Assembly (NCBI GenBank): GCA_030740765.1 | Contig: JASLWR010000009.1 | Location: 1,905-65,904 of the forward strand | Source: Thermoplasmatota archaeon | Lineage (GTDB): Archaea; Thermoplasmatota; Penumbrarchaeia; JASLWR01 | Length of the DNA: 64,000 nucleotides | Direction of reading: 5' to 3' | Shown: positions 37,030-60,568 of the stretch, piece by piece | Layout of the letters: each line of letters opens with the position of its first letter | Numbering within the stretch: position 1 is the first letter of the stretch | The notes under the pieces: generated by a model | Told to the model about the DNA's origin: nothing | The model's input: the letters and a program-made list of their open reading frames with translations, nothing else | The model's database searches: none | Program-made: the position numbers and the translations under genes

Positions 37030-37790
37030 AACCAAATAGTAGTAAACTACCAGCCCCTAAAGGAGCTGGCGTTTTAAGCGTTGTGCCGTTAATTCTAGGC
37101 AAAGTCTGTCAACGAAGTTTGGCCGATTAGGCCGACGGTCTTCCTTACCTTGAAGTATTCATAATCATCTCCTTGCCAGTGTTTACGTTGTTGTCTCTCG
37201 ATGTAGAATTGGACCATTTCGCCCGTGACTCGGCCAACGGATTCAAAGAAATAACCATCGGTCCAGAACTGATCGCCCCATAAGTGCCTTTTGATCGTAT
37301 TCCAACATTTCTTGCGAATCCAGTATGAGGTGTAGCCTTTCAATTGGCCTGCAATATATGAGACACTGTAATTCTTGCATCCAACTAAAAATACATGGGC
37401 ATGGTCGGTTCCAAATTCCATCGCACTTATTGATATACCCAAATGTTTTGCCTTCTCTTCCATCATCTCTCTACAAACGGCTTGAACTTCTGGATACTCG
37501 AAAACAGGGCGTCGGTACTTCGGTGTGAACTGCATATGGAAGTTACATCCTCCGAAACTGTGTTTAGCTCTCGCTAATCGATTCATGTTGTAGACCTCCG
37601 AAAACTATTTGAAAGCCTACACTAATACCGGTTTGCCTCGTGCCACGAGGCGCGCCGAAAATTTAGCGTTTGACGGTCAAGTAGACCTCCGTGTTAGACT
37701 TTCAAAACGGGAATGTCCTCAACCGGTTTAAATCTTCGGCGCCACAATTCATCCAGAGCCTAAAGGCACTGGCGTTCTTGTGGCTATTTT
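37030..37790. mobile_element. IS200/IS605-family insertion sequence (tnpA only)
   Basis: tnpA gene plus subterminal hairpins on both sides with a conserved CTAAAGG(A/C)RCTGGCGTT core: CCAGCCCCTAAAGGAGCTGG at 37050-37069 and CCAGAGCCTAAAGGCACTGG at 37753-37772. The ~0.75-kb size is typical of IS200. Confidence 0.7.
37095..37586 (-). CDS. tnpA: IS200/IS605 family Y1 (HUH) transposase
   Basis: HUH motif HAHVFLVG and catalytic Tyr region YIAGQLKGYTSYWIR. Confidence 0.85.
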   Translation of the reverse strand: MNRLARAKHSFGGCNFHMQFTPKYRRPVFEYPEVQAVCREMMEEKAKHLGISISAMEFGTDHAHVFLVGCKNYSVSYIAGQLKGYTSYWIRKKCWNTIKRHLWGDQFWTDGYFFESVGRVTGEMVQFYIERQQRKHWQGDDYEYFKVRKTVGLIGQTSLTDFA

Positions 37791-38379: not shown

Positions 38380-41300
38380 GTGAAAATGTCCAAAAAGAAG
38401 GTAACACGGCGTGGTTTTTTAAAACTCCTAGGTGGTACAACCGCCTCACTTTTCATGTCCAGATTTATTCCAAAAGTGGTATTTGCCTCTGACAAATTGG
38501 AGCCCATAAAAAGTGAGATGAATCCCTTGGAGACTTATCCGAATCGGGACTGGGAACAAGTCTACCGTGACCTCTACTCCACAGATTCGAGTTATATATG
38601 GCTTTGTGCTCCAAACGACACACACGGTTGCCTATTAAGAGCTCATGTGAAGAACGGAGTTGTCAAATATATCGATCCGAGTTTTGGATACGGCAAGGCC
38701 ACTGATGTATATGGAAATCAGGCATCCTCCCGCTGGGATCCGCGGATATGTCCAAACGGCCATACCTACGTTCGCCGATGCTACAGCGATCGACGAGTAA
38801 AAGGGGCCTACATTCGTACAGGTTACAAGGATTGGGTTGATGCGGGAAGACCACGTGAATCCGATGGCCTGCCAAAGCGGGAATACTTCCTGAATCGAGG
38901 TAAGGATACTTGGGAGAATGTGTCATTTGATGAGGCCTATACGTATATTGCGGGAAGTCTCAAGAATGTGGCTGAAACATACACCGGTACGAAGGGGAAA
39001 GACTATCTTCTCGCCCAGGGCTATCACCCGGCCATGGTTGAGAAGACAAAGACCGACAGCGGAGAGTATGCCGGGATAAGGACCTTGAAATTCAGGGCAA
39101 GCATGGCATGGTTATCGGCCATGAGGTTCACCGGACTCTACCGTTTTGCAAACTCCCTAGCCTTGTTAGACGCAAACATAAGGGGAGTCGGCCCTGACGA
39201 GGCGACAGGTCCGAGGAGCTGGGATTCGTACTCATGGCACACAGACCTGCCGCCGGGACATCCAATGGTCCACGGGAACAAGACCATCGATTTTGACCTT
39301 TTCGCAGCCGAGTATTCAAATCTCATAACACTCTGGGGGATGAATTGGATTGCTACCAAAATGGTAGAAAGTCATTGGCTCACAGAAGCACGGATCAGGG
39401 GAGCGAAGGTGATAACCATCGCCACCGAATACCAGTCCACCTCGAACAAGGCCGATGAGGCGATCGTCATCAGGCCGGCAACTGATACAGCCTTCGCCCT
39501 AGGTGTGGCCCAGCACCTCATTGCCAAAGGAATTTACGATGCCGATTACATTAAAAAGTTCACTGATCTTCCCTTCCTTGTTAGAATGGATGACCTGACT
39601 CTTCTTCGGGCTAAGGACGTTAAGACTTTTGACCCGTATACTCAGGCAAATCTTTCCAATTACACCCAAATAGGAGGCACCGTTCCATCAAAGTTTATCA
39701 AGCAGGACAGAATGTACATATCTCAATCCCTAAGAGATGAATGGAACGATTATGTCGTTTGGGATTCGACACTTACATCTCCCAAGGTGATTACACGGGA
39801 TCAGGTTGGAGACGATTTCACTACTTCGGGATTGGACCCGGCCCTCACCGGGAGTTACCAGGTGACCTTGTTGGACGATGACGACACTCAAGTCGAAGTG
39901 AGACCTATCTTTGACCTGATCAAAGAATATGTTGATGATAACTTCACCCCTGCCAAAGCCTCCGAGGTATGCCGGGCTCCTCAAGCTGCTATCGAGGCCT
40001 TCGCCCAATCCATTGCAAACAACAATGGGAAAACCCTATTCACTGTGGGAATGGGACCAAACCATTACTGGACGAATGATCTTAAGGACCGGGCAATATT
40101 TCTCATTGCAAGCCTTACTGGTAGTGTAGGGAACTTCGGTGGAAATGTGGGCAGCTATTCTGGAAACTACAGGCTTGAGTTATTCAACGGCATCGGCCAT
40201 TGGGCTGCGGAGGACCCGTTCAACGTGGAACTGGATCCGTTGAAGCAGTCAGTAACCAAAAAATACAAAAAAACCGAATCAGCTCACTATTACAATTATG
40301 GTGACCGTCCTCTAGTAGTGGTGGATGGGGACGGAAAGGAACTCCATAACTTCACGGGGGATACCCACATGCCAACCCCCACCAAGACAACCTGGTGGGT
40401 GGATGCAAATTCCATCTTGGGGAATTCAAAATGGGCATATGACGTCATCGTGAACACTCTCCCACGAATCGAAATGATAGTTACAAATGAGTGGTTCTGG
40501 ACAAAGACTTGCGAGTACGCCGATATTGTACTTGGGGTTCCATCATGGATCGAACGGAAGATTCCGGATATATATGGCGCTTGTACAAACCCTTTCTTTC
40601 AGATGATAGTTCCGGCGGATATCGATTACATTCATGACGTCAGGGACGATCTGGAAACCTATGAGGGAGTTGCAAATAAGCTATCCGTTCTGACCGGTGA
40701 TACTCGGTTCAATGACCTTTGGAGCTTTAAGAACAGCGACGGCCGGCTTGATATGGCCAAGTATGGCCAGAGAGTTCTTGATTCCAGCAATACCTTGAAG
40801 GGGTACGAATGGGACAAGGTTCTCAAAGACTGCAAGGAGGGAATACCAAAATATGTCATGGTCCGAACAACACCCCGTGTCGGAGGATATGAACAGATAC
40901 ATGAATCCAAACCCTTTTACACTAAAACCGGACGTATGGAATTCTTCCGCGAAGAGCCTGAATGGAGGGATGCGGGGGAAAACCTTCCAATCTTCAGGGA
41001 GACAGTTGATTCCACCCACTACGAACCTGCCGTCATTGTGGATGAGGGGTCCAATCCTGCCATCCGGCCAATGGGACCTGCTGATTATGGATTTCACTTA
41101 GACCAGTTGGATGCCGAGACAAGACAGGTACGGAATGTGGTAAAAGGATGGTCCGATCTTAAAAACACCAAACACCCATTGGCAGTGGCAGATCCGGATT
41201 TCAAATTCATTCTTTATACTCCAAAATACCGTCATGCATGTCACTCAATGGCGGCATCCCAGGATTACAATGCCGTTTATTTCGGACCCTTTGGGGACTT

Positions 41301-41919
41301 CTATCGGAGGGATAAAAGAAAACCTTACGTTGGAGAAGGATACGTGGATATGAATCCGGATGATGCAAAGGAGCTGGGAATCGAGGATGGGGACTATATC
41401 TGGGTAGATGGAGATCCGAAGGACCGTCCCTATAGAGGGTGGAAAGAAGGGGACGACAATTACAAAGTAATGCGATGGCTCGTTCGGGCGAGATACTACC
41501 CCGGTATTCCGAGAGGCACAGCTCGATCTTGGTTTCACATGTATGGTGCTACTCACGGCAGCGTCGAGGGACATGAGAACAGATATGACGGGCTGGCCAA
41601 GAGTCCGACAACGGGCTACCAAGCTGCGTACAGGTACGGCAGCCATCAGTCAATTACCAGAGCCTGGCTCAAGCCCACACTTATGACCGACTCGCTTGTT
41701 CGGAAGAACGGTATGGGTCAGACGATTGGCAAGGGATACCACGTTGAAATCCATTGTGCCACCGGAGCACCCAAGGAGTCTTTCGTCAAGATAACCCACG
41801 CAGAGGATGGCGGCATCGGGGGTATTGGTCGTTGGGAACCAGCCGCCGAGGGCTATCGGCCTACTTATGAAAATTCAAAGATGAGCAAATACCTTGCGGG
41901 CAAGTATGGGGGTGATTGA
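38380..41919 (+). CDS. Tat-exported molybdopterin oxidoreductase catalytic (alpha) subunit, DMSO-reductase family type II (NarG/NxrA/EbdA-like)
   Basis: Twin-arginine signal (KVTRRGFLKLLGGTTASLF). Molybdopterin domains (IATEYQSTSNKADEAIVIRPATDTAFALGVAQHLI; GMGPNHYWTNDL...GGNVGSYSGNY). N-terminal FS0 region reads C-APN-D-THG-C-x39-C. Length of 1179 aa is in the NarG/NxrA range. Confidence 0.85.
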   Translation: MKMSKKKVTRRGFLKLLGGTTASLFMSRFIPKVVFASDKLEPIKSEMNPLETYPNRDWEQVYRDLYSTDSSYIWLCAPNDTHGCLLRAHVKNGVVKYIDPSFGYGKATDVYGNQASSRWDPRICPNGHTYVRRCYSDRRVKGAYIRTGYKDWVDAGRPRESDGLPKREYFLNRGKDTWENVSFDEAYTYIAGSLKNVAETYTGTKGKDYLLAQGYHPAMVEKTKTDSGEYAGIRTLKFRASMAWLSAMRFTGLYRFANSLALLDANIRGVGPDEATGPRSWDSYSWHTDLPPGHPMVHGNKTIDFDLFAAEYSNLITLWGMNWIATKMVESHWLTEARIRGAKVITIATEYQSTSNKADEAIVIRPATDTAFALGVAQHLIAKGIYDADYIKKFTDLPFLVRMDDLTLLRAKDVKTFDPYTQANLSNYTQIGGTVPSKFIKQDRMYISQSLRDEWNDYVVWDSTLTSPKVITRDQVGDDFTTSGLDPALTGSYQVTLLDDDDTQVEVRPIFDLIKEYVDDNFTPAKASEVCRAPQAAIEAFAQSIANNNGKTLFTVGMGPNHYWTNDLKDRAIFLIASLTGSVGNFGGNVGSYSGNYRLELFNGIGHWAAEDPFNVELDPLKQSVTKKYKKTESAHYYNYGDRPLVVVDGDGKELHNFTGDTHMPTPTKTTWWVDANSILGNSKWAYDVIVNTLPRIEMIVTNEWFWTKTCEYADIVLGVPSWIERKIPDIYGACTNPFFQMIVPADIDYIHDVRDDLETYEGVANKLSVLTGDTRFNDLWSFKNSDGRLDMAKYGQRVLDSSNTLKGYEWDKVLKDCKEGIPKYVMVRTTPRVGGYEQIHESKPFYTKTGRMEFFREEPEWRDAGENLPIFRETVDSTHYEPAVIVDEGSNPAIRPMGPADYGFHLDQLDAETRQVRNVVKGWSDLKNTKHPLAVADPDFKFILYTPKYRHACHSMAASQDYNAVYFGPFGDFYRRDKRKPYVGEGYVDMNPDDAKELGIEDGDYIWVDGDPKDRPYRGWKEGDDNYKVMRWLVRARYYPGIPRGTARSWFHMYGATHGSVEGHENRYDGLAKSPTTGYQAAYRYGSHQSITRAWLKPTLMTDSLVRKNGMGQTIGKGYHVEIHCATGAPKESFVKITHAEDGGIGGIGRWEPAAEGYRPTYENSKMSKYLAGKYGGD

Positions 41920-41921
41920 TC

Positions 41922-43070
41922 ATGGTCGATGTGTGGAATTGGCAGCTCAATCGGAAGATGGAATACAAGTATGATGAGACTCGGCCTTCCAAACAGGTCA
42001 GCGCTGTTTTCGACATTAACAAATGCATTGCATGCCAGACCTGCACTATGGCATGTAAAACCACCTGGACATCCGGGAAGGGTGAGGAGTATATGTTCTG
42101 GAATAGTGTCGAAACAAAGCCCTGGGGCTCCTATCCCATGGGGTGGGACGTAAGAATTCTCGATAAGCTCGGCTCGCAGCCATGGGACACTAACACCGAT
42201 CCCGTAACCTTTTCAGGTAAAACCATCTTCGAAAAAGTTCCGGAGGGTGAGGAGGTTGAAGGATGGCGCCCCGACGATATGGACTGGGCTTATCCGAACC
42301 GGGGCGAGGATGAGACCAACGAGATCATTGACAAGTCAAAGTACCACCTGACACTTCCCCATGCAATATGGAACTTCTATCTGGCTCGGATATGTATGCA
42401 CTGCACATATCCGGCTTGCGTCGCCGCTTGTCCTCGAAAAGCAATCTATAAGCGGAAAGAAGACGGGATCGTTCTCATCGACCAGAAGCGGTGCAGGGGG
42501 TACCGGGAGTGTGTACGAGCATGTCCGTATAAACGTTCCATGTACAACCACGTCACCCGAATATCGGAGAAATGCATCTTCTGCTATCCCGCGGTGGAGG
42601 AGGGGATTTGGCCCCGGTGCATGCGTAACTGTGTCGGTAAGATCCGCCTCGTCGGGTATGTTAACAAACCGGAAGATTCGGACCCCAAAAACCCCATAGA
42701 CTTCCTTGTACACGAAAAGAAGGTCGCACTCCCCCTTTATCCACAATTGGGAACCGAGCCAAATATATACTATATCCCTCCAATTCATTCGGATGCCAAG
42801 TTCTTGAAACAGATGTTTGGTCCCGGGGTTGATAATGCTGTCAAGATATATAAGAACATGCGGAACGGGAACGAACCCGAACTCAGAGGTGTTCTTCTCT
42901 TATGCACGAGCACGGACAAGATTTTAGGAAAGTTTGCAATCCGTTCGGACGAGGCCATCGGATACGATACGGATGGGAATGAGGTAGCGCGTCTCCCCTT
43001 GGTGGAGTCGCAGATCAGACGGGTCTTCCACGACTCGGAAAGGGAGGTCTACCGGCACAATATCACGTAG
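41922..43070 (+). CDS. iron-sulfur (beta) subunit, NarH/NxrB/EbdB-like four-cluster ferredoxin
   Basis: Cys motifs CIACQTCTMACK, CMHCTYPACVAACP, CRGYRECVRACP, CIFCYP...C. Translationally coupled (overlap) to the alpha subunit. Confidence 0.85.
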   Translation: MVDVWNWQLNRKMEYKYDETRPSKQVSAVFDINKCIACQTCTMACKTTWTSGKGEEYMFWNSVETKPWGSYPMGWDVRILDKLGSQPWDTNTDPVTFSGKTIFEKVPEGEEVEGWRPDDMDWAYPNRGEDETNEIIDKSKYHLTLPHAIWNFYLARICMHCTYPACVAACPRKAIYKRKEDGIVLIDQKRCRGYRECVRACPYKRSMYNHVTRISEKCIFCYPAVEEGIWPRCMRNCVGKIRLVGYVNKPEDSDPKNPIDFLVHEKKVALPLYPQLGTEPNIYYIPPIHSDAKFLKQMFGPGVDNAVKIYKNMRNGNEPELRGVLLLCTSTDKILGKFAIRSDEAIGYDTDGNEVARLPLVESQIRRVFHDSEREVYRHNIT

Positions 43071-43082
43071 GGAGGTGAAAGG

Positions 43083-44270
43083 ATGATCAAGAATAAAAAA
43101 ACCGTTATTATGTTTGTTATCACTCTATCTATCGTCCTCACGGTGCTCCAATATCAGGGTATTGTCCCGGGAACCTCGGACTCCGGAACTGAACTGAGAT
43201 CGGTCTATACGGAAGAGGATATCCCGGCCACAGACCCCGAATCAAGTTTATGGGATGAAGCCACATCCATCACAGTACCTATTTCAGGCCAGACAAGTAC
43301 CAATCCAAAACGGCTCTTGCCATCAGTGGAGTCCGTCCGTATCAAGTCCCTTAACAACGGCACCCACATCGCTTTTCGGATCACCTGGAATGACGCGGTC
43401 AAGAACAGCAAGACCACCAAGAATCAGGAGTTCCGTGACGCTCTTGCCATCCAGATCGCAGACAAGGGCTCCATCCCATTCGTCTGTATGGGATCTGCCG
43501 CAACCGGTACCACAAGAATGCATATTATGCAGTGGAAGTCCGATTGGCAGAGGGATATTGAAGAAGGGTTCCAGGATCTCGAGGACTCATTCCCCAACTT
43601 CTGGGTGGATTATTACCCCTATGCTGTGGGAGAGCCTCCTTATAGGGTTCCCGAGGACTTCCCCGGGAACGCAAGTCTCTACCTGCCCGGTTATCACGTG
43701 GGAAACCCATTCTCCGATCCATTGAAGGTCACTTCTGTGGAGGATGCCATAGCCGATGGTTACTCGACCATCACAACTCAAGCGATCCAGAACGCGGTTG
43801 GCCGCGGGGTCTGGAAGAACGGTACATGGAGCGTTGTGATCTCCAGGGCCTTGGACACCGGGGACCATGACGATACTGTGATCAAGGAGGATAATATCCT
43901 CGCCTTCGCCGTATGGGACGGGGAGAGCCAAGATGTGGGAGCGCGGAAGTCGGTCAGTAGCTGGGTCACCCTCAAGACCCGCGGTAAGACCAAAGAAGAA
44001 AATCCCCCATATGTTGCTCAGATCTGTATTCTGATATTGTATGTGATCGCTCTATTGGCTATCATCGGCCTCATTGGATTTGGACTGAAGCGAAAGAAAA
44101 AAGGGAAGGTCTCCAAGGAAGAAGGGGAGGCAACTGAGGATAAACCCGATTTAAAAGAAGAGGAGCAACCCAAGAAAACCGGGGAAGGTAAAAAGAAGAA
44201 GGTGGGACACTCTCAGAAGAAATCTCAGAAGAATAAGGTTAGCCCTGCAAAAAAGAGAAAAGGAGGTTGA
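43083..44270 (+). CDS. heme-b (gamma) subunit, ethylbenzene-dehydrogenase-gamma / NxrC-like (EB_dh domain) with a C-terminal TM anchor and Lys-rich tail
   Basis: N-terminal signal/TM, EB_dh-like beta-sandwich region (ITVPISGQ...IAFRITWND...AFAVWDGESQD), C-terminal TM (ICILILYVIALLAIIGLIGFGL) and a K/E-rich tail. Confidence 0.7.
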   Translation: MIKNKKTVIMFVITLSIVLTVLQYQGIVPGTSDSGTELRSVYTEEDIPATDPESSLWDEATSITVPISGQTSTNPKRLLPSVESVRIKSLNNGTHIAFRITWNDAVKNSKTTKNQEFRDALAIQIADKGSIPFVCMGSAATGTTRMHIMQWKSDWQRDIEEGFQDLEDSFPNFWVDYYPYAVGEPPYRVPEDFPGNASLYLPGYHVGNPFSDPLKVTSVEDAIADGYSTITTQAIQNAVGRGVWKNGTWSVVISRALDTGDHDDTVIKEDNILAFAVWDGESQDVGARKSVSSWVTLKTRGKTKEENPPYVAQICILILYVIALLAIIGLIGFGLKRKKKGKVSKEEGEATEDKPDLKEEEQPKKTGEGKKKKVGHSQKKSQKNKVSPAKKRKGG

Positions 44271-44276
44271 AGGAAG

Positions 44277-44990
44277 ATGACGGAAATAGATGATCATGTA
44301 CATGAATGCGAGATCTCTTTCACCAGATCCCAGGTGTACGGTCTCCTCGCCAGGATTTTCTCCAGTTCCGATCAGGTTCTTGATAACACCTTACTGCGGG
44401 ATCTCGGCCGAGTCACTTCCGAAACCTCGGATTACGTGGAATTGGACGATGATTTGACGCGCATAAAAGAGGCAATCCGCGCTATCGCCCCGACAGTAAG
44501 GGAAATGAACCAAGAATATACCCGCCTCTTTTCCAAGGGAGAGGCCCCCCCTTACGAATGCTCTTACGTACCCTCATCCAGGGTCACACATGAACTTGCT
44601 GATATCTCGGGTTTCTTTTTAGCTTTCGGCGTTCAACCAAAGGGGGAGCGCCAGGATAATCTCAGCAGCGAACTCGAGTTCATGTCCTTCCTGTGTCTTA
44701 AAGAATCCATCGCCCAATCCAACCAGATGCTGGAGGAGGCCAAGATATGCCGCGATGCACAAACCAAGTTTCTCACCGACCACCTAGGCAGGTGGATCGG
44801 CGTCTACCACCGCCTTGTAACAGACAAGACTAACTTCCCGATCTATCCCCTGTTGGTGGGTCTCGTTCATAAGATAGTCACACGGGACGCTTCATATCTG
44901 GGGGCCCGAATCGACGAAATCATAGAGGTGCCAATAGATGAGGCCCAAGACCTACCTGGATGCGGGATCGGCTCGAACTCGATATGCTAA
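44277..44990 (+). CDS. TorD/DmsD/NarJ-family redox-enzyme maturation chaperone (delta subunit)
   Basis: TorD-like signature (YTRLFSKGEAPPYECSY...LDHLG-like HLGRWIG). Confidence 0.75.
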   Translation: MTEIDDHVHECEISFTRSQVYGLLARIFSSSDQVLDNTLLRDLGRVTSETSDYVELDDDLTRIKEAIRAIAPTVREMNQEYTRLFSKGEAPPYECSYVPSSRVTHELADISGFFLAFGVQPKGERQDNLSSELEFMSFLCLKESIAQSNQMLEEAKICRDAQTKFLTDHLGRWIGVYHRLVTDKTNFPIYPLLVGLVHKIVTRDASYLGARIDEIIEVPIDEAQDLPGCGIGSNSIC

Positions 44991-45018
44991 TCTGCTTCCG
45001 GTATTTGTAAAGCTTTTG

Positions 45019-45990
45019 ATGATCTCTGCCCTAGTAGAGTTCATCATCCTTCGGGGTCTCAACAGGATGGCGGACCTCTATCCTTGGTGGATGAAGAGGG
45101 GCGGTACTGCCATAATGGTATTCATGGGAAACATCGCTTACAATTTAGCCTTCATAACATCAATAACGGTCGTTCTCATTATAGCTTATGTCTTTTGGAA
45201 CAAGGAAAAAAGACTATCACTGTTCCTGTTAATATGGGTCACGGTTCTCATTGGTGTCTCGGTCATCGGGTCGTGGATCGAGCTGATAGTGTTATTGGGC
45301 AGCATCACGGCGATCCTTCTCCTGTTTACCCTTGTGATGCGGAAGTCGCACAGGATTTTTTTCTCCCAAGGACATGAAACATTAGATACCGAAGCATCGG
45401 GAAAAATTCATCGTGGTGCGCTTCTACTGTTTTTTCTTTTCATCCTTATCGCATACCTCAGTGCTTTATACCTACACATAGGAAACGATCTCGCAAATCT
45501 GGGTTTGTCCCCTCCCGGAAGGACCGGGGTATATGGGATTGGAGAGGTCTTCGCTGTCGCATCGGCATTCCTGGCCTTGGTGGCGTTCTGGCGGAGGCCT
45601 CGCTTAGTCGATCTGGTCCTTCCGACCATAGTGGTCGGTGGTATGTTGACGTTCGCATTCTTACGCTCCGACATCTTACCCCTGGTGACCATGTGGTCAT
45701 TGGGTTTCCAGTTTTACCTGTTCCTACCGATCTATATTGGGGCCCTCTGGTGTTACCTTCTCACCTTATTTCTCCTCGTGCGCAGCAAGGGACGGAGAAA
45801 GTACCTCGTACCCGGCCTTTTGCTCATAGCTATCAGTGGACGCATGTTGAACGATTTCTATCTCATACAGATGGCAATGGTCGGTGTGCTCCTCCTCACC
45901 TTGGCCGACGACTTGGTCGAGTTTACCCTTGATACGAAAAGAAAATTGGTGCCAATGAAAATGGTTGAACATGGCCACCCGACCCGGTAA
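45019..45990 (+). CDS. polytopic membrane protein of unknown function (about 8 TM), last gene of the molybdoenzyme operon
   Basis: Multi-TM ORF overlapping the end of the chaperone gene. Start chosen at an internal Met to minimise overlap. No known quinol-oxidase motifs recognised. Confidence 0.45.
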   Translation: MISALVEFIILRGLNRMADLYPWWMKRGGTAIMVFMGNIAYNLAFITSITVVLIIAYVFWNKEKRLSLFLLIWVTVLIGVSVIGSWIELIVLLGSITAILLLFTLVMRKSHRIFFSQGHETLDTEASGKIHRGALLLFFLFILIAYLSALYLHIGNDLANLGLSPPGRTGVYGIGEVFAVASAFLALVAFWRRPRLVDLVLPTIVVGGMLTFAFLRSDILPLVTMWSLGFQFYLFLPIYIGALWCYLLTLFLLVRSKGRRKYLVPGLLLIAISGRMLNDFYLIQMAMVGVLLLTLADDLVEFTLDTKRKLVPMKMVEHGHPTR

Positions 45991-46082: not shown

Positions 46083-48503
46083 ATGTTCAGAGGCTCTAAT
46101 AAGGAGAAAAATAGTAAACCACTTGAAAAAACTCGCGCGCTGCCACTGATTGTCGCGATCAGTATGATATTGGTCGTTCTCCTTGTGGTAGACCTTGGTA
46201 CAATGGGTGATTCAAATAGAGCCTCCGACAATATGTGTATAGGTTGTCATGGTAACCGTTTTAAGGAGTATAGCAATCTTCTCCCCGGCGACCCCTTATC
46301 TGTGCTGCCAACAGAATTCACCGAGAATTCAACAGAGATTAAGATAGCTGTCGAGATAATCGACACGGGAGATCCCGGACCTCTGTCGTATTTCGAGATA
46401 TCCTCGCTACGAGTGACCCTTAACAGTATCGACAATAAATTGGACATTCCCAACCCTCAGCAGGAGAAAAATAATCTTTTTCCAGACGATAAGGTGATTT
46501 TTAATTGGTCGGTTACGGGGGTCCTACCGGGTGAGGACACCTTGACCATCAGCCTCTATGCATTAAATCCACATTATAATTGCGTGGCTATAGATACTTA
46601 TAGCTATATCGCCTCGATTATACTTCCATATGAGATACCTTCACAGCCTCAAAACGTCACGGCGATCCCGGGTGATGGTTATATAGTGTTATCATGGCAA
46701 GAACCGAACGATGATGGAGGTATACCCGTAATGGAATACAAAATATATCGTGGTGGAGATCCCGGTGGTGAAACTTATTATGATCTGGTGAGCAGCACAA
46801 TGACCTCATATAATGATACCTCGGTTACCAATGGAGAGACCTATTATTATTATATAACCGCAACAAATTTAATCGGTGAGTCCGAAAAGAGTCCCGAGGT
46901 CTTTGCTACCCCATATGGACGTCCTACGCCGCCATTGAATCCGAAGATAAATAGTGGAAATAGTTATGTTGAACTGGACTGGGAAACATCGATTGACGAC
47001 GGCGGATCACCAATAATGTTCTACAATATATACCGGGGGAATTCCTCGGGCAACGAGACTTACCATATTTCCCAGAATATTAATAAAACCTCATACAACG
47101 ATACAGCAGTTACTAATGGGGAAACATATTACTACTATGTTACCGCTGTTAATTCGGTCGGTGAATCCGATCCCGGTATCGAGGTGTTTGCATCACCCGG
47201 AAAAGATGTTACAAACCCTTCGGCCCCGGAAAATTTCGAGGCCATGGCAGGAAACGGTTTTGTCCACTTGTACTGGGAGATTCCATCTGATGACGGTGGT
47301 TCTGTTATAATGGGATATAAGATATTCCGGGGTATAAATTCCGGAGATTTTACTTTCTTTGATTCCGTATTGGGTTTCACAACCTCATACAACGATACCT
47401 CTGTTATCAACGGAGAAATTTATTATTACTATGTTACAGCGGTCAACCCGGTAGGAGAATCAGGGCCGAGTGATGTCAATATCACAAGCCCACGTGGCCT
47501 TCCGGAACCTCCAAAGGAAGTTCAGGCTACTATGGGCAAGGGGTATGTCATGTTAATCTGGAAAGCCCCGGATAACGATGGGGGAGCTATAATAACTGCT
47601 TATAGGATATACAGAGGCAATGGATCAAGCAATTTTATCGACTTTTCCCTGGTCAGCGGGTTAACGCTATCTTACAACGATACCTCTGTTATAAACGGAG
47701 TATCTTATTACTATTATGTTATTGCAATCAACTCCTTGGGGGAGAGCGATCCCAGTAATGAGGTAAACGTAATATCTCAGAGAGAACCTACGGCGCCCCG
47801 GAACCTGAGCGGGATACTTGGTCCCGGATATGTACATCTCTCATGGGAACCTCCGGTGGAGGACGGAGGTTTACCTATATTGATATATAATATCTATCGC
47901 GGTACTTTTTCGGGCGCCGAAACCTATCATTCATCTGTCAGTTCAATATTGACCCAATACCGAGATGCGGATTCAAACATATCATATTATAATAATATAT
48001 ATTATTATGTCACTGCAGTCAATTTTGTCGGAGAAAGCGCCCCGACCGATGAAGTTAATGTGACCATCCAAGAGGTGGGCACTGATTCCACTGAACCCGA
48101 TCTTCCTGAGGTAGCCTCGTACTTTCCCAAAAACAGGAATTTGCAGGCTAACCTGAATGAGGTTGTGGTATTCTATATGGAAGCTGACGGTAATGTATCT
48201 ATTAACTGGTATGTGGATAACGAGCCTTACGCAACCGGGACATCTACATTGAGCTATCCTGTAGTAAAACCCGGCACACGTACGATCAGGGCACGAATAA
48301 CGGATGAGATTTCCGATCGTTCCATTGAGATATCCTGGAATATCGTGACCACAGAAGATGATGCCAACATCGAGACTAACGAGCAGAGCAGTATCTCCCC
48401 GCTTCCTGGTTGGATGAGGAACTCTGTACTCTACGGCGGCATGGTCGTGCTCATGGTGCTGGGCGTATATCTTGCGATTTTTTACAGGAAGAGGAAACCA
48501 TGA
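46083..48503 (+). CDS. membrane-anchored protein with an N-terminal CXXCH motif (CIGCH), five tandem fibronectin type III domains, an Ig-like domain and a C-terminal TM helix
   Basis: N-terminal TM, NMCIGCHGN, five ~94-aa repeats each ending Y(K/N)IYRG...SYNDTSVTNGETYYYYVTAVN..GES, C-terminal TM (LYGGMVVLMVLGVYLAIFY). Confidence 0.7.
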   Translation: MFRGSNKEKNSKPLEKTRALPLIVAISMILVVLLVVDLGTMGDSNRASDNMCIGCHGNRFKEYSNLLPGDPLSVLPTEFTENSTEIKIAVEIIDTGDPGPLSYFEISSLRVTLNSIDNKLDIPNPQQEKNNLFPDDKVIFNWSVTGVLPGEDTLTISLYALNPHYNCVAIDTYSYIASIILPYEIPSQPQNVTAIPGDGYIVLSWQEPNDDGGIPVMEYKIYRGGDPGGETYYDLVSSTMTSYNDTSVTNGETYYYYITATNLIGESEKSPEVFATPYGRPTPPLNPKINSGNSYVELDWETSIDDGGSPIMFYNIYRGNSSGNETYHISQNINKTSYNDTAVTNGETYYYYVTAVNSVGESDPGIEVFASPGKDVTNPSAPENFEAMAGNGFVHLYWEIPSDDGGSVIMGYKIFRGINSGDFTFFDSVLGFTTSYNDTSVINGEIYYYYVTAVNPVGESGPSDVNITSPRGLPEPPKEVQATMGKGYVMLIWKAPDNDGGAIITAYRIYRGNGSSNFIDFSLVSGLTLSYNDTSVINGVSYYYYVIAINSLGESDPSNEVNVISQREPTAPRNLSGILGPGYVHLSWEPPVEDGGLPILIYNIYRGTFSGAETYHSSVSSILTQYRDADSNISYYNNIYYYVTAVNFVGESAPTDEVNVTIQEVGTDSTEPDLPEVASYFPKNRNLQANLNEVVVFYMEADGNVSINWYVDNEPYATGTSTLSYPVVKPGTRTIRARITDEISDRSIEISWNIVTTEDDANIETNEQSSISPLPGWMRNSVLYGGMVVLMVLGVYLAIFYRKRKP
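46639..48075. repeat. five tandem ~282-bp coding repeats (FN3 domains)
   Basis: Repeated protein-level units are visible in the translation. The DNA copies are diverged. Confidence 0.6.
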
Positions 48504-50122
48504 GAAAAATGGTTATTCTCTTTCTAATAACCATCATTCTGGTCCCCACAGCTGGCGGAGATTCCCATCGAAATACCGATTGTTTATCCTGTCATTCTTC
48601 ATCATACCCCATTTCCGGGTACGTCTATTATCCCCCGACGGTTTTTTTAAATGTTTCCATGTTTACAAAACGTGGGGTGGAATTTCCCGTAGAAGTGGGA
48701 ATTGATTTTATTGATTATGATATAAAGGAACTTCTAATAGAAATTACTCAAGATCCGAAAATCTTTAGTTTCAATGAATCCACTATAGAAGCATATGATC
48801 TGAAAAAGGGTACGAGATTCAAATTCACCGCTACTGCAATAAAGAACGGGGTTTCCAAAATAATCGTAACGGTAAATGCGATAACCTATTATGAGCATAA
48901 AACCATTGATGGATACGATTATCGGGAAGAAGTGATAGAGAAAAGTAGGATCATCAGTGTTGGTAGTACATCGTTGGTACCTTCATCCTGGAACGTATTG
49001 TTGGATGATGCGGGCGGGGAAATAACCCTGACCGCAGTGGAGGACATCACCGATCTAACTGTTTTCACATCATCCTCTCTCGAAGCAAAGCCCACCGGCA
49101 GGAACTTTCTATCGGCAGATAGTGAACTGGACATCTTCTTGCGCCCCACATCTCGAAAAAAGATCGATGAGAATATAATAATATCGTGGCGGGTGAACAA
49201 CACACCCTATGCTATTCCAATAAGTGTTTTATACAATCCCCAAGCGCCCAAAGTAACTGATTATTTTCATTGGATCGGAAGAATCACCGGTATATCTACT
49301 CTTGTACTGCTTTTGATCTCCATAGTTCTCGGCGGTATATGGAATACCGGAGGTTATCTAAACCGGATGATCAGCGCCAAGCGAAGGGTGAGGTATCATT
49401 GCGCCGTATCGTGGTTTCTTTTTGGATTGGCTATCTATCACGGCTCCGTTCTTCTATCCGGTCCTTACACTGACCAGCTCTGGAACATTTGGATCATATT
49501 AGGTTATCTCGCCGCCGTTACGATGCTGGTGGTGAGCCTGACCGGGAGCTTTATGAAGTTTACGATAAAGTTGATAGGTGCCAAGAACTGGCGCAGGGTC
49601 CACCTTTACTCAACATTTCTTTCCCTTGCATTTGTAATTTTTCATGGGATCGCCATGGGAACGGATTTTACATTCATTAGGGAACGAGAGGATATTGTTT
49701 TCTGGGCGATTATGGGTACGGTATTGTTCGCTGGAGTTATTGTTTTGACGCTCTATTTAAACGAAAGAGAAAAAGGACTGACTCGGATACAACATCATTC
49801 CCTTGATCCTAGGGGATCCGATGATTCTGATGATGATTTATACTGGCAAGACGATTATCGAGAAGACGATTGTCGGGAAGACGATCACAGATTGGATGTT
49901 TACGGGACGGACGACCCATGGCAAGACGATTATCGTCAAGATAAATACGGATCGGATGATTACTACAATGAAGCAAAAAAAGAAGTTGAGATACCATGTC
50001 CCAAGTGTGGTGAACAATTATCCCCACCCTATAAGTTCTGCACTACCTGCGGTTTGAGGCTAGCTAAGGAAAACTTTAAAATTGGAAAAAGGAAAAAGTG
50101 GAGGAGTGGTAACAGAGGATAG
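48500..50122 (+). CDS. fusion protein: N-terminal CXXCH domain (CLSCH) + ferric-reductase-like di-heme-b transmembrane domain + acidic DDY-repeat tail + C-terminal zinc ribbon
   Basis: ATGA overlap with the previous gene. DCLSCHSS after an N-terminal TM. Two TM helices each carry His pairs 14 residues apart (YHCAVSWFLFGLAIYHG; VHLYSTFLSLAFVIFHG), as in FRD/cytochrome b561-type bis-heme domains. Tail: DDYREDD.. repeats and CPKCGEQL...CTTCGL. Confidence 0.65.
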   Translation: MRKMVILFLITIILVPTAGGDSHRNTDCLSCHSSSYPISGYVYYPPTVFLNVSMFTKRGVEFPVEVGIDFIDYDIKELLIEITQDPKIFSFNESTIEAYDLKKGTRFKFTATAIKNGVSKIIVTVNAITYYEHKTIDGYDYREEVIEKSRIISVGSTSLVPSSWNVLLDDAGGEITLTAVEDITDLTVFTSSSLEAKPTGRNFLSADSELDIFLRPTSRKKIDENIIISWRVNNTPYAIPISVLYNPQAPKVTDYFHWIGRITGISTLVLLLISIVLGGIWNTGGYLNRMISAKRRVRYHCAVSWFLFGLAIYHGSVLLSGPYTDQLWNIWIILGYLAAVTMLVVSLTGSFMKFTIKLIGAKNWRRVHLYSTFLSLAFVIFHGIAMGTDFTFIREREDIVFWAIMGTVLFAGVIVLTLYLNEREKGLTRIQHHSLDPRGSDDSDDDLYWQDDYREDDCREDDHRLDVYGTDDPWQDDYRQDKYGSDDYYNEAKKEVEIPCPKCGEQLSPPYKFCTTCGLRLAKENFKIGKRKKWRSGNRG

Positions 50123-52460: not shown

Positions 52461-55106
52461 TTATATAATTCCGACGAGTAAGAGACCTCCGATAATGGTG
52501 AATAACATCAAAACGAGAGTTATTCGGCCAGACCACCGGTGTACGTTACGAATGATATTCCTTTTCTTTTTTATTTTTAGCAGCAGCACTCCGAGGATCG
52601 GCATGCTTATGATAAATATCGCTGTCAAAGCACCCAAAAAGGTATGGGTAACCCTGAAATGTATTCCTCCGGATGAACCCACCATGTAGAATGCGAATAT
52701 TATCCCGATAACAGATGATGCCGCACCCGCCGATCCCAGTAACCTGTGCGCTTTCAGCCACCATTTTTTTTTCTTCATGAACCTGGCAATGGTGACTCCG
52801 GTGGCCATTAATAATAATCCCAAACTCATTAACACTGCGTGATACGGCCACCAAACAGACACCTTTTTTTCCCAATATTCACCTGTGGCGATATCCAAGG
52901 TAGCGTAACCCTTCTTTGTATGCTTTAGTTCACGACTGTCCTCTGGGCTCATTGCCCATATTACATTCAATCTACCGTCGGGATCGATGTCATGATCATA
53001 CTTATCGCCTGTGGATAAATATCGCTTGAATTCGATTATAGTAATACCGTTTTCCTCCGAGCCGCTAAAGGATAATATGTCCGAGGTACCTCCCTTATCC
53101 ACATCGATCAGATGGGGCCCTCCTTCTTCTTCGGAATAGGTGTCAAGCGCGATCACATCATCACCGGAAACCGAACCGATTATTATATCGGCATCCTTCA
53201 TCATTTTCTCGGCATCAAAACCGATGGCCACCCATCCCGTGGTCTTTCCCTCGATGGCCATATAAATGGATTTACCATCGACGCGCCAGTGTAATATGAA
53301 ATTTCCGTCATCGAATGATGCTTCGAATTCGTATTCACCCTCTGTAATTATTCCATCGAGATTATAGACCACTTCAATATGGGAGGTTGCATTATTTCCC
53401 GAGGTGTCCGAGGCCCTTGCATAGATGGTGTTAGTTCCTTCCCTCAGAGAGATCAAAGCGGTCCAGTTAAGAGTGCCCTGGGCTGCTATCCATTCCTCTT
53501 CGTTGACTTTCACCTCTATTTTATCCAGTTCCACATCATCATATGCAGTGCCATTCACGGTTATCTTACGTACATCCAGCTCCTCGTTGTTCAGTGGCCA
53601 CAAAATTGATATGACCGGTGGAGCAAAATCAGGCGGCGTGTATGTAACGTTAACAGAATCGGAGGCATGGTTGCCGGAAGAATCAGTGGCCCTGGCTATT
53701 ATACGATTATTTCCTTCCACAAACGTTAATTCAACGCTCCACGATTCCGTGCCCTCGGTTAACTTCCAGACACCGTCATTTACCTTCACATCTACCCTGC
53801 TCAGGGCGGCATTGTCAGTGGCATTCCCTTTTACCGTTATCGTGCCCGTTTCAAACACCTGGCTCTCAAGAGGTGATGATATCTTGATCCAGGGAGGTAT
53901 CTCGTCGAGTGGCCCCGAGCTATTATAAGTGACGTTTACTACATCCGTGGCTTCATTGTCGGAGGCGTCGATGGCCTTGGCATAGATCGTATTTTGACCC
54001 TCTGCCAGCATCAGATCTATGCTCCATGAATCCGTTCCCTGGGCCAACTGCCATTGACCGGTGTTCAGCTTGCCCTCCACCCTGCCCAAAGCTTCGTCAT
54101 CATCGGCGGTTCCGCTCACGGTTATCTGGTCCGTGTAGAACACTTCTCCTTCTGTGGGGACGGATATATATATAATTGGGGGGGTGGAATCAACATAGGT
54201 GACGTTAACAGTGCCCGTGGCCTCGTTCTGATATTGGTCGGTGGCCTTAGCATAGATCGTATTTACTCCAGGGGCAAGAGTGACCTGTATTGTCCAAGAA
54301 ACCGTCCCGGTGGCCTGCTGCCAAGCTCCTTCGTTCACTTTCACCTCTACGGTATCCAATCCTCTATCGTCAGATGCCATGCCGGAGACGGTAATTTGTT
54401 CAGTGGAGACCTCAACACCGTTTGACGGTGATGTGATGGATATGGTAGGGGCATTGGTGTCCAAGCTCTCGGGTACAACCCACGAATTCTTATTCCAGCC
54501 ATCCCCGTTATTTTTACCATTCCCATTTACGGCGTTACCAGCCAAATAAAATGTTATAGTTCCGGTGCCTGGACCGGGGGCTGTCCAATCGATATCCCAG
54601 GATCTCTGGTTTTTATTGGTATGGCTTGCCTGATTCTGAGCAATGTTTATTTGAACATTTCCATCCGTTGTCGAGAGACTTCCGGAAGACACCTCAAGAT
54701 TAAAACCTCCCAGGGCGGTTGCCGGCCCACCGTTTAAACTCAGGGTGAGAGGATATGTTTGAGCGGAGCTATAGTTATTTGGTAACCCGTTTATGGAAAC
54801 TGCCACTGTCGGATCGGGGGTTGGTGAGTGACATGTACAACCCGTTTGAGCTTTATCAAACTTACCTCCACTTCTTGCTCCCACTTCCAAAACAGCAACA
54901 CTGCCAATCAATATCAATAGAAGAACCAGTCCGTATGTTTTGGCTGGATTTGTACCATTTTTAATCATGAGGGAAATATTCTTCTGTTTTTTCGGACAGC
55001 TATGATATACGTTCCTTCCTCTTTTATCAGACCGTTTTTTTCTAAAAAAGTGGTTTTTCATTTCCTTTTCAGAAGGAATAATATCATCCATGTTTGTAAA
55101 TAACAT
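52461..55106 (-). CDS. N-terminal CXXCH (CTCH) + 4 Ig-like repeats + DOMON domain + cytochrome b561/ferric-reductase-like TM domain protein
   Basis: Signal/TM, then GCTCHSPTPDP. Four ~90-aa repeats (ITVSG.A.DD..L..VEVKVN.G.W..A.GT.SW...L.EG.NTIYA.A.D..N.A). DOMON-like block (GWVAIGFDAEKMMKDADIIIG...IIEFKR). C-terminal 4-5 TM helices with conserved His residues. Confidence 0.65.
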   Translation of the reverse strand: MLFTNMDDIIPSEKEMKNHFFRKKRSDKRGRNVYHSCPKKQKNISLMIKNGTNPAKTYGLVLLLILIGSVAVLEVGARSGGKFDKAQTGCTCHSPTPDPTVAVSINGLPNNYSSAQTYPLTLSLNGGPATALGGFNLEVSSGSLSTTDGNVQINIAQNQASHTNKNQRSWDIDWTAPGPGTGTITFYLAGNAVNGNGKNNGDGWNKNSWVVPESLDTNAPTISITSPSNGVEVSTEQITVSGMASDDRGLDTVEVKVNEGAWQQATGTVSWTIQVTLAPGVNTIYAKATDQYQNEATGTVNVTYVDSTPPIIYISVPTEGEVFYTDQITVSGTADDDEALGRVEGKLNTGQWQLAQGTDSWSIDLMLAEGQNTIYAKAIDASDNEATDVVNVTYNSSGPLDEIPPWIKISSPLESQVFETGTITVKGNATDNAALSRVDVKVNDGVWKLTEGTESWSVELTFVEGNNRIIARATDSSGNHASDSVNVTYTPPDFAPPVISILWPLNNEELDVRKITVNGTAYDDVELDKIEVKVNEEEWIAAQGTLNWTALISLREGTNTIYARASDTSGNNATSHIEVVYNLDGIITEGEYEFEASFDDGNFILHWRVDGKSIYMAIEGKTTGWVAIGFDAEKMMKDADIIIGSVSGDDVIALDTYSEEEGGPHLIDVDKGGTSDILSFSGSEENGITIIEFKRYLSTGDKYDHDIDPDGRLNVIWAMSPEDSRELKHTKKGYATLDIATGEYWEKKVSVWWPYHAVLMSLGLLLMATGVTIARFMKKKKWWLKAHRLLGSAGAASSVIGIIFAFYMVGSSGGIHFRVTHTFLGALTAIFIISMPILGVLLLKIKKKRNIIRNVHRWSGRITLVLMLFTIIGGLLLVGII
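53351..54431. repeat. four tandem ~270-bp coding repeats (Ig-like domains) within the 52461-55106 gene
   Basis: Protein-level repeats seen in the translation. Coordinates approximate. Confidence 0.5.
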
Positions 55107-55937: not shown

Positions 55938-57059
55938 CTAACGCCCTTTTCCATTCTTACGAGTTCTCCATCCACCAAATATGGGTTTGCATTTTATTGA
56001 CAGGTCCATCCTTTTTGTACCCATGATTCTCATGGCAAGATCAAGAGTCCAATCACTCTTGAAAGACAGGTCGGCAAGTCTTTTAGTCATCAATGCAGTC
56101 TTGAGCTCTCTGCCCACAGCTTGCCTCCACTCTGTCTCGTAATCTTCAAGCGGTGATTCGGAATTGATATGTCTTCCTATGACGTTCCCCGCGATCCTTC
56201 CGCATATCATGGCAATGGGAATACCACCGCCGTTGGTGGCCATGACATGACCTGCGGCGTCCCCTACCACTATAACATTTCCCTTCACAGTTTGAGGTAT
56301 GGGTCCCGAGACAGGTACATGACCTGCACTCCAAAATCTCGGTTTTGCATTTATATCAATGGATTTGAGAAATTTTAGCAACAGGGATTTAAGTGGAACT
56401 TTACTCTTTTTCTGCACTCCTAATCCGATATTTGCCCCCGTTGCTTTCGGAATGACCCATGCATAACCTCCCGGTGCAACGCTGCCGAAATACATTTCCA
56501 CGGTGGGTTCAAAATCGCCCGGTATTTCACACAATATGCAGGGAGACAGTTTCTTTGGGCCTCGTAATCCCATCCATCCTGCAACCTTGGAGAAAGGACC
56601 GTCAGCACCTACTATTACTTTTGAGATGAAATCCCCCCCATTGGTTATTACCCTGTGGCCATCGATGCCCGTAACTTTAACATCCGTCCTTAGCTCTGCC
56701 CCCATCTTGACGGCCTTCTCTACAAGATATTTATCAAACTCCCTTCGCTCAACCGAGAATCCATTGAATTTTAATTCATAGCATTTTCTCTTGGAGGAGA
56801 ATATTTTAATGGAGGTGGTCCTTTTAGAGATTAATTTTTCTTTTATAGCAAACAATTCTCCTAAATTATTTACCTTTGGTAATATCTCCCGAATCTCATC
56901 AACGGTAGGTAAAAATTCACCACACTGTACGGGATATCCTATTTCCTTTTTTTTTTCTAGAATTAAGACATTTAATTTATTTTTGGCTGCATAGTAAGCA
57001 GTGGTGCTGCCCGCGGGCCCCGCTCCAATTACAATGACATCATATCTATCCATGACCAT
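55938..57059 (-). CDS. geranylgeranyl reductase family FAD-dependent oxidoreductase (digeranylgeranylglycerophospholipid reductase-like)
   Basis: N-terminal FAD dinucleotide-binding motif YDVIVIGAGPAGSTTAYYAA and GGR family blocks (PVQCGEF, VVGDAAGHV). Confidence 0.85.
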   Translation of the reverse strand: MVMDRYDVIVIGAGPAGSTTAYYAAKNKLNVLILEKKKEIGYPVQCGEFLPTVDEIREILPKVNNLGELFAIKEKLISKRTTSIKIFSSKRKCYELKFNGFSVERREFDKYLVEKAVKMGAELRTDVKVTGIDGHRVITNGGDFISKVIVGADGPFSKVAGWMGLRGPKKLSPCILCEIPGDFEPTVEMYFGSVAPGGYAWVIPKATGANIGLGVQKKSKVPLKSLLLKFLKSIDINAKPRFWSAGHVPVSGPIPQTVKGNVIVVGDAAGHVMATNGGGIPIAMICGRIAGNVIGRHINSESPLEDYETEWRQAVGRELKTALMTKRLADLSFKSDWTLDLAMRIMGTKRMDLSIKCKPIFGGWRTRKNGKGR

Positions 57060-57111
57060 CCCGTTGATTCAGATATTTTATTATTTCAATTATCTATTGA
57101 TCCGATGGCGA

Positions 57112-58092: not shown

Positions 58093-58195
58093 AATATTTA
58101 CTATGTATATAATGGTTTTTCTTAGGAATCAATATATATCGAGTAATATATATTCATGTCCTATTCATGCTTAACTTCAGTTCACCGGATATTTA

Positions 58196-59311: not shown

Positions 59312-59436
59312 ACTATCCCCGCCTATGCAGCTACCTTCAGGCTCTATGCTTTCATCGCCACATTGATGTGTGTCGCCTATGTACCGAGGTTCTTTGGAAT
59401 ATCTTTTTGATTTTTATCAGAAAAAATATTTCAGGA

Positions 59437-60375: not shown

Positions 60376-60568
60376 CTCCTTTGTTTGGATTTGAATATTC
60401 TTTAAAAGTTATTTATTATCGGTGCTATACACGATCCCAGGATTCTTCCGAATATACGTTATGGTCTTTGTCTCGTGAGTCAATGAACAACCCACATTTG
60501 CCCGTTATCACTCCGTTGCTCGCTCTGCTACGCAACACCTTTGAGGCGTTGCTGCACCCTCAGCATCC

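Follow-up and report, generated by a model that had tools for sequence, protein, structure and literature searches.

A nitrite oxidoreductase-type operon of a Thermoplasmatota archaeon with an uncharacterized membrane-protein gene linked to an anchored gamma subunit

We analyzed a 64,000-nt stretch of contig JASLWR010000009.1 (GCA_030740765.1) from a Thermoplasmatota archaeon; this stretch, hereafter the window, is the single part of the metagenome-assembled genome (MAG) that was visible to us. Five consecutive plus-strand open reading frames (ORFs) encode alpha, beta, gamma and delta subunits of a nitrite oxidoreductase (NXR)-type molybdoenzyme, followed by a membrane protein that we call the fifth protein (Table 1). 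In operons of this kind the fifth gene is strictly linked to a gamma subunit that carries a C-terminal transmembrane (TM) helix. With some reserve, we favor a reading in which the operon encodes a membrane-anchored, outward-facing enzyme of the NXR lineage, likely reducing nitrate, with the fifth protein as its dedicated, cofactor-less membrane subunit. An original prediction for the window had described a five-ORF operon; all five ORFs are present as described, and its domain calls hold in Pfam and NCBIfam searches.

A membrane protein encoded beside anchored gamma subunits

The fifth gene lies directly after the alpha, beta, gamma and delta genes in all 12 independent loci whose flanks were readable, and no counter-example was found; two further contigs were too short for its position to be judged. 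Besides the window itself, the gene directly follows the delta gene in a metagenome contig whose alpha subunit is 75% identical (L001), a Thermoplasmata locus (L003), RBG_16_68_13 (L004), another metagenome contig (L005), a locus of Bathyarchaeia, going by the name of its gamma subunit (L007), and a 97%-identical relative (L008, CAYFHS01). The same holds for loci from Dehalococcoidia, Chloroflexota and SAR202 (L019, L022 and L026) and for two of the most distant members of the fifth-protein family (L089 and L090). The mutual identity of the fifth proteins across these loci falls to roughly 20-30%, and a C-terminal gamma TM helix is present in every locus that has the fifth gene.

Co-occurrence was scored in 53 loci that had a gamma gene and enough downstream DNA. 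The fifth gene was found in 10 of the 15 loci with a TM-anchored gamma and in none of the 38 with a soluble one (Fisher p = 1.5e-7, with kinship among the loci ignored). The original prediction had suggested that the last protein of the operon may be a novel quinol-interacting anchor; our analysis strengthens this suggestion without proving it.

The fifth protein has no Pfam or NCBIfam match, and none of 28 aligned members of its family matches any Pfam family. When 1.84 billion cluster representatives were searched exhaustively with HMMER, only 54 relatives reached E <= 1e-3, of which 15 reached E <= 1e-30, and nearly all were ~300-360 amino acids (aa) long; alpha, in contrast, has thousands of relatives. 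In the 28-member alignment the invariant residues are E34, R39, R43, G64, E203, Y266 and Y308. Neither His nor Cys is conserved in this alignment, in keeping with the original description of a terminal membrane protein devoid of NarI-like heme motifs, and both heme ligation of the NarI type and Fe-S binding of the NapH type are therefore excluded. Comparison with an NrfD-like protein in hhalign returned a probability of 0.5%, and we detected no homology to NarI, NrfD or NapH. Classification as an NrfD/PsrC (PF03916) or NapH (Fer4_5) type protein was thus rejected, there being neither sequence or profile homology nor Cys clusters. A text-limited literature search found no account of the protein, which is weak evidence of absence.

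An AlphaFold2 model built from the 28-member alignment had a mean predicted local distance difference test (pLDDT) score of 91.2 and a predicted template modeling (pTM) score of 0.89. When it was compared with the PDB using Foldseek, the best match had E = 0.19 and a TM-score of ~0.2, and no recognizable counterpart was found. Positive charges alternate between loops, with 2-3 Lys/Arg in residues 84-92, 136-160, 215-224 and 281-291 and 0-1 in the alternate loops. The model and this charge pattern suggest about ten TM helices, in place of the eight originally counted, with both termini inside. In this topology the invariant polar residues all map to outer loops or to the membrane's outer half, on the side of the gamma heme domain.

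In the working that we propose, the NarJ-like delta subunit would mature alpha in the cytoplasm, and alpha-beta would be exported folded via the twin-arginine translocation (Tat) pathway. Gamma would be exported via Sec and held at the membrane by its C-terminal TM helix, its Lys-rich tail staying inside. Electrons could be exchanged between the heme b of gamma (Met136/Lys289), the beta clusters FS4 to FS1, the alpha cluster FS0 (Cys76/Asp80/Cys84/Cys124) and the molybdenum bis-(pyranopterin guanine dinucleotide) site (Mo-bisPGD), at which Asp289 would act as ligand and Asn79 would hold the substrate. The fifth protein and the gamma TM helix may together form a membrane domain, in which the fifth protein would probably be what connects the enzyme, on the outer side of the membrane, with the quinone pool. 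Of the parts of this scheme, a role of the fifth protein as a dedicated membrane subunit seems to us reasonably probable. That it provides the quinone-coupling site is a tentative proposal, and we hold just as loosely the idea that it founds a new class, namely a cofactor-less subunit of ~10 TM helices, with a fold unrepresented in the PDB, which docks the gamma helix and couples the enzyme to the quinone pool.

Several points weigh against this scheme. The loci with a fifth gene fall in only two alpha clades, one archaeal and one of Chloroflexota, and the number of independent co-occurrence events is therefore small; the clades were read from a rough neighbor-joining tree (distance-based and midpoint-rooted, without support values or curated references), which served only to group these loci. 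In addition, the fifth protein is missing from five loci whose gamma is TM-anchored (L017, L018, L023, L029 and L061; from Fraserbacteria, Acetothermia, Planctomycetota in the case of L023, and two Nitrospiraceae). The fifth protein has no recognizable quinone site, and its contact with gamma is one that we infer.

In the Planctomycetota MAG locus (L023, positions 15089-18005), a COX2/cupredoxin domain is joined to gamma, after which comes a 9-TM Fer4_5 (NapH-like) protein. By analogy, this arrangement appears to mirror, in a bacterium, the Orf7, HCO-II and NapH set of Methanoperedens. Different polytopic proteins at the same operon position in each lineage look like a non-orthologous replacement of the membrane coupling module.

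It is also conceivable, if rather doubtful, that the fifth protein is an assembly or stability factor for anchored gamma, acting in membrane insertion or heme b delivery or as a purely structural anchor, and not an electron-transfer subunit. Such a role would suit a protein without conserved redox-cofactor ligands that is missing from some operons with TM-anchored gamma, and whose gene adjoins and overlaps, by 53 nt, that of the chaperone. The best Foldseek matches of the model, although insignificant, are ATP-binding cassette (ABC)-type heme or siderophore exporters. Heme b is needed on the outside in operons with a soluble gamma as well, yet all 38 of these lack the fifth protein, which argues against general heme export. 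The clustering of the invariant charged residues at the outer face, where they resemble a binding site, and the fact that other lineages have a NapH-like quinol dehydrogenase in the corresponding place of the operon likewise argue against an assembly factor. A merely co-expressed transporter of nitrate, nitrite or another small solute is very unlikely: ~10 TM helices and conserved intramembrane Glu and Arg residues would fit one, but the protein resembles neither MFS/NarK nor other Pfam or NCBIfam transporter families and has no PDB transporter fold, an outward-facing active site requires no substrate import, and the restriction to operons with TM-anchored gamma would be left unexplained.

Family assignment and cofactor ligands

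Among solved structures, alpha matched NxrA of Kuenenia stuttgartiensis (7B04_B) with 862.9 bits (E = 3.6e-258) over query residues 7-1175; scores for the perchlorate reductase PcrA, Escherichia coli NarG and the ethylbenzene dehydrogenase (EBDH) subunit EbdA were 140, 118 and 107 bits. Indeed, all three redox subunits found their best match in the Kuenenia NXR (7B04; alpha 863, beta 384 and gamma 86 bits), with E = 6.9e-114 for beta against NxrB (7B04_A). The best NCBIfam matches of the four subunits were the type-II dimethyl sulfoxide (DMSO) reductase models TIGR03479, TIGR03478, TIGR03477 and TIGR03482, and all scored below their cut-offs (268 vs 985, 272 vs 481, 104 vs 170 and 62 vs 152); for alpha, EbdA came next after the generic type-II subfamily. 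These models are evidently built around the Ebd/Ser/Pcr/Ddh group, and the low scores therefore place the operon in a separate NXR-type branch outside that group, with an architecture that is still of type II.

The structure matches and domain hits thus support the original description of a periplasmic NXR/pNar-type type-II molybdoenzyme with a chaperone. Judged from its sequence, the operon is a member of the periplasmic NXR/nitrate reductase (NAR) clade, with NxrABC of the Nitrospira/anammox type, and it carries each sequence-testable defining feature of that clade. The Tat motif of alpha predicts an active site that faces outward. We rejected a classical NarGHI on the basis of the NarG model score (TIGR01580, 128 bits vs a cut-off of 1084), the Tat signal, the Asp-type FS0, the lack of NarI in the operon and the lack of conserved His in the fifth protein.

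The nearest alpha relatives, at 65-75% identity, come from Thermoplasmata/Euryarchaeota MAGs such as RBG_16_68_13, and matches at or below ~59% identity include Nitrososphaerota, Armatimonadota, Acidimicrobiia, Dehalococcoidia, Candidatus (Ca.) Nitrotheca patiens and Bipolaricaulota, among others. When species-representative genomes were scanned with two alpha-specific peptides, relatives were found in at least 560 species genomes of many phyla.

The exact FS0 motif of alpha is C76-APN-D80-THG-C84-x39-C124, in which C76, D80, C84 and C124 align one-to-one with C67, D71, C75 and C115 of Kuenenia NxrA, and Asn79 with Asn70. The Asp at the central position is thus real and not an artefact of alignment. 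In the Kuenenia crystal structure (2021) the four equivalent residues ligate FS0 in a 3Cys/1Asp arrangement, and the central Asp had been noted earlier, in 2010 (PMC8387239). NAR and EBDH have a 3Cys/1His cluster with His at the position of Cys67; Asn70 of Kuenenia coordinates the substrate, where EBDH has Ile, and Asp275 is the Mo ligand (PMC8387239). Asp289 of alpha is the predicted equivalent of Asp275, with numbering that fits within one or two residues, and Asn79 and Asp289 are invariant across an alignment of 21 alpha sequences.

The original prediction implied that the Asp motif is unusual. We found C-[A/S]-P-N-D-T-H-x-C in all 85 alpha subunits examined from related loci, which makes it a hallmark of a clade that includes a characterized enzyme. 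This is the outcome that the original prediction itself had named as making the enzyme ordinary. By sequence, the Asp-ligated FS0 is an ordinary, known signature of the NXR-type clade.

Beta contains 15 Cys, in the groups C-x2-C-x2-C-x3-C, C-x2-C-x4-C-x3-C, C-x5-C-x3-C and C-x2-C-x11-C-x3-C, which are predicted to hold three [4Fe-4S] clusters and one [3Fe-4S] cluster. Gamma matched Pfam EB_dh with 84.1 bits (cut-off 33.3). It begins with a signal or TM segment (residues 9-27), and a Lys-rich tail follows its C-terminal TM helix; the C-terminal anchor of the original description is thereby borne out. In the alignment, the EBDH heme ligands Met108 and Lys201 fall exactly on M136 and K289 of gamma, and these two residues are invariant among relatives. 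The heme b of Kuenenia NxrC is also Met/Lys ligated, which likely contributes to a high redox potential (PMC8387239). The tail after the TM helix (residues 333-395; 44078-44270) comprises ~60 residues and is extremely rich in Lys and Glu; tails of relatives are much shorter. Delta matched Nitrate_red_del with 66.1 bits (cut-off 22.2), and its best NCBIfam match, TIGR03482, describes the type-II DMSO reductase chaperone.

Substrate and direction of catalysis

Full-length homology to NxrA, together with the invariant substrate Asn and Mo-ligand Asp, points firmly to nitrite/nitrate as the substrate pair. The original prediction considered the substrate unreadable from the sequence; an 863-bit match and these two residues indicate otherwise.

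For the direction, we consider nitrate to nitrite respiration the probable one by analogy, in a host that would presumably be an anaerobic or facultative heterotroph. In RBG_16_68_13 (alpha 65% identical), the divergent neighbor of the operon encodes a copper nitrite reductase, NirK (TIGR02376, 314.9 bits vs a cut-off of 296.3), beside which lies a hemerythrin/RIC-like gene. Upstream of the fifth-gene operon of L090 lie two CRP/FNR-type regulators, and a hemerythrin follows downstream. According to a published description, Ca. Yaplasmales (formerly RBG-16-68-12) are anaerobic, lack bc and bd complexes and possess Nar/Nxr and nitrite reductases (PMC9239135). We assume here that the RBG relatives belong to Ca. 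Yaplasmales. The NirK neighbor, the CRP/FNR regulators and this physiology are the grounds for the proposed direction.

Four considerations temper it. The evidence comes from the loci of relatives and not from this genome, of which 64 kb are visible; NirK also occurs in nitrite oxidizers, so that the neighborhood argument is weak; the enzyme family is reversible; and we know of no sequence feature that separates nitrate-reducing from nitrite-oxidizing members of the clade.

It is accordingly necessary to weigh an enzyme that works as a nitrite oxidoreductase outside the membrane and passes electrons via the gamma heme b into a respiratory chain, which we judge unlikely. The closest characterized relatives are true NXRs (Kuenenia 7B04, and a protein of Ca. 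Nitrotheca patiens named NxrA, with 55% identity), TM-anchored NxrC variants have been proposed as anchors in Nitrospira and Nitrospina, and the redox potential expected of a Met/Lys heme b (PMC8387239) would also suit nitrite oxidation. However, the alpha sub-clade to which the enzyme belongs (Thermoplasmata and Bathyarchaeia) contains no organism that we recognize as a nitrite oxidizer, and the family as a whole extends through at least 560 genomes of many phyla not known as nitrifiers. Operons of relatives adjoin NirK or FNR-type regulators, and the related Thermoplasmatota are, by description, anaerobes that lack terminal oxidases (PMC9239135).

Least probable of all is another type-II substrate (chlorate, perchlorate, selenate, or an organic compound as in EBDH): the generic type-II and EbdA models head the NCBIfam matches, and the original prediction saw in the arsM/PiT genes of the window a speculative hint at an oxyanion, but the Pcr and Ebd structures score 6-8x below NXR (140 and 107 vs 863 bits), the substrate-coordinating Asn, Ile in EBDH, is invariant here, and the methyltransferase and PHO4 genes lie 35 kb off, with none beside the related operon loci examined.

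Locus, neighboring genes and related systems

Table 1. Features of the operon, in window coordinates
Feature	Coordinates	Strand	Basis
Alpha, catalytic Mo-bisPGD subunit, NxrA/NarG-like	38380..41919	+	1179 aa; Pfam Molybdopterin; 7B04_B best solved match
Tat motif T-R-R-G-F-L-K, alpha residues 9-15	38404..38424	+	Translation; aligns with Kuenenia NxrA Tat leader
FS0 [4Fe-4S] region C76-APN-D80-THG-C84-x39-C124, including Asn79	38605..38751	+	Aligns with Kuenenia C67/N70/D71/C75/C115
Asp289 (W-H-T-D), predicted Mo ligand	39244..39246	+	Aligns with Kuenenia W-H-G-D; invariant in 21-sequence alignment
Beta, four-cluster Fe-S subunit, NxrB/NarH-like	41916..43070	+	Fer4_11; 7B04_A match
Gamma, EB_dh heme-b subunit	43083..44270	+	Pfam EB_dh; 7B04_C NxrC best solved match
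Gamma C-terminal TM anchor, residues 314-332	44022..44078	+	Hydropathy peak 3.09
Delta, NarJ/TorD-type assembly chaperone, 237 aa, cytoplasmic	44277..44990	+	Pfam Nitrate_red_del
Fifth gene, uncharacterized polytopic membrane protein, 350 aa, ~10 TM	44938..45990	+	Without Pfam/NCBIfam family

The true start of alpha is probably the ATG at 38386, which follows a Shine-Dalgarno-like GAGGTG and gives 1177 aa, the length of a 100% identical database protein (P0001) named from a 'Candidatus Thermoplasmatota archaeon' MAG. Beta probably starts at the ATG at 41922, giving 382 aa as in relatives. The N-terminus of the fifth protein is conserved in homologs, and the upstream start of its ORF, within the delta gene, is therefore real. 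A scan for promoters and terminators gave counts near the shuffle expectation, with a consensus that is bacterial in a host that is archaeal. An IS200/IS605-type Y1 transposase gene lies ~800 nt upstream of the operon (37095-37586, minus strand), and the G+C content of the operon is 0.475-0.518 vs 0.43-0.44 in its immediate flanks. The transposase and the raised G+C are compatible with horizontal acquisition of the operon, as is the patchy phylogenetic distribution of the family.

Downstream, 92 nt after the fifth gene, begins the gene of an 806-aa surface protein (46083-48503, plus strand) with N- and C-terminal TM segments, one CxxCH (CIGCH) and at least four fibronectin-III repeats, which is kept only in the 97%-identical relative (L008). 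The ATG of the next gene (48500-50122, plus strand; ORF listed from 48410) overlaps the preceding stop codon (ATGA). It encodes a protein of ~540 aa with a signal or TM segment, one heme-c CxxCH (CLSCH), a large outside domain and five DUF4405 TM helices, in which His pairs lie 14 residues apart (H330/H344 and H398/H412), and with an acidic repeat tail and a zinc ribbon at the end. This protein looks like a transmembrane electron conduit combining heme c with a di-heme b. Its gene was not found beside the NXR operons of other loci, apart from that of L008.

On the minus strand, 52461-55106 encodes an 881-aa fusion of choice-of-anchor V, four Big_7 Ig-like repeats, DOMON and a C-terminal cytochrome b561-type domain, which is a second candidate transmembrane electron-transfer protein, with a predicted heme-binding DOMON outside. 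L001 also has a choice-of-anchor V protein, beside a DsrO/DsrP-like (NrfC/NrfD-type) pair. We considered the cytochrome-like genes at 46083-50122 and the DOMON-cytochrome b561 gene as parts of the system and rejected them, as they are kept only in L008 and accompany no other operon.

Further along, a 903-aa fusion (60569-63280, minus strand) combines FAD_binding_4 (GlcD/D-lactate dehydrogenase-like), a 4Fe-4S dicluster and two CCG (HdrD/GlpC-like) domains, and the adjoining genes (55938-60375) encode a geranylgeranyl reductase-like flavoprotein, a polyprenyl synthase and two UbiA prenyltransferases. The genes at 55938-63280 could be those of quinone or lipid biosynthesis and of a membrane-linked 2-hydroxyacid dehydrogenase feeding into a quinone pool. 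At the window's opposite end (2046-4085, plus strand), a S-adenosylmethionine (SAM)-dependent methyltransferase gene ('arsM') is followed by one for a PHO4-family phosphate transporter, ~35 kb from the operon and with no evident connection to it.

The closest characterized system is NxrABC of K. stuttgartiensis (7B04), whose structure was described by Chicano et al. 2021 (PMC8387239). It shares the Tat leader, the C-x3-D-x3-C-x39-C FS0, the substrate Asn, the Mo-ligand Asp, a four-cluster beta and an EB_dh gamma with Met/Lys heme b, and the alpha subunits align over their full length. Kuenenia NxrC is soluble, in a complex that builds tubules with a further protein inside the anammoxosome, whereas gamma is TM-anchored here; the operon described here also has a chaperone, an unrelated ~10-TM protein, an archaeal host and a likely nitrate-reducing direction. 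The periplasmic NXR of Nitrospira and Nitrospina belongs to the same alpha clade, with 53-54% identity to the Nitrospiraceae loci and with CAPNDTH common to both. Some NxrC candidates of these bacteria, encoded elsewhere beside cytochromes c and bd-like oxidases, carry one TM helix at the C-terminus and have been considered as membrane anchors (PMC6606698, PMC3578206). The Nitrospirota loci that we examined yielded no homolog of the fifth protein. The TM-anchored gamma, which the original prediction had pointed out for this operon, is not unique; such alternative NxrC proteins, and NarM of Pyrobaculum, are comparable.

The pseudo-periplasmic nitrate reductase cluster of Ca. Methanoperedens, which serves nitrate reduction, comprises NarG, NarH, NarJ, Orf7, and HCO-II-like and NapH-like proteins (PMC4683180). 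By description, it resembles the present operon in being archaeal and in its Tat-exported NarG/NxrA-like protein, EB_dh-type heme b protein, NarJ and terminal polytopic membrane protein. The membrane partner in that cluster is, by description, a NapH-like Fe-S protein with nine TM helices, and Orf7 is soluble, whereas the partner here lacks Cys/His ligands and any similarity to NapH or Fer4_5.

NarGHM of Pyrobaculum aerophilum and haloarchaeal pNarGH are likewise outward-facing archaeal nitrate reductases, with a single-TM anchor subunit. Their NarG belongs to the classical lineage with a His-type FS0, and the alpha lineage thus differs from the one here; we know of no report of a fifth polytopic protein for either system. 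In Pyrobaculum, NarM co-purifies with NarGH (PMC4683180). EbdABC(D) and PcrAB follow the same four-gene logic of alpha, beta, gamma and delta and share the EB_dh heme b with Met/Lys ligands, but they are soluble periplasmic enzymes and far more distant (107-140 vs 863 bits). EBDH also differs in having a 3Cys/1His FS0 and Ile at the position of the substrate Asn, in contrast to 3Cys/1Asp and Asn here.

Taken as a whole, the operon is an ordinary, if new, archaeal member of a large known family with a known hallmark. Its new element, a modest lead, is a small uncharacterized membrane-protein family whose genes are confined to NXR-type operons with a TM-anchored gamma. How periplasmic NXR is attached to the membrane and exchanges electrons is unresolved even for Nitrospira and Nitrospina (PMC6606698, PMC3578206), and for outward-facing NXR/NAR enzymes the five-gene operon offers a testable candidate for this missing membrane module. 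The fifth gene may also help to tell, among the many metagenomic 'nxrA/narG-like' genes, those of membrane-bound, quinone-coupled enzymes from those of soluble ones. If the proposed role is correct, the fifth protein would represent one lineage-specific answer to membrane coupling, in Thermoplasmatota, Bathyarchaeia and some Chloroflexota.

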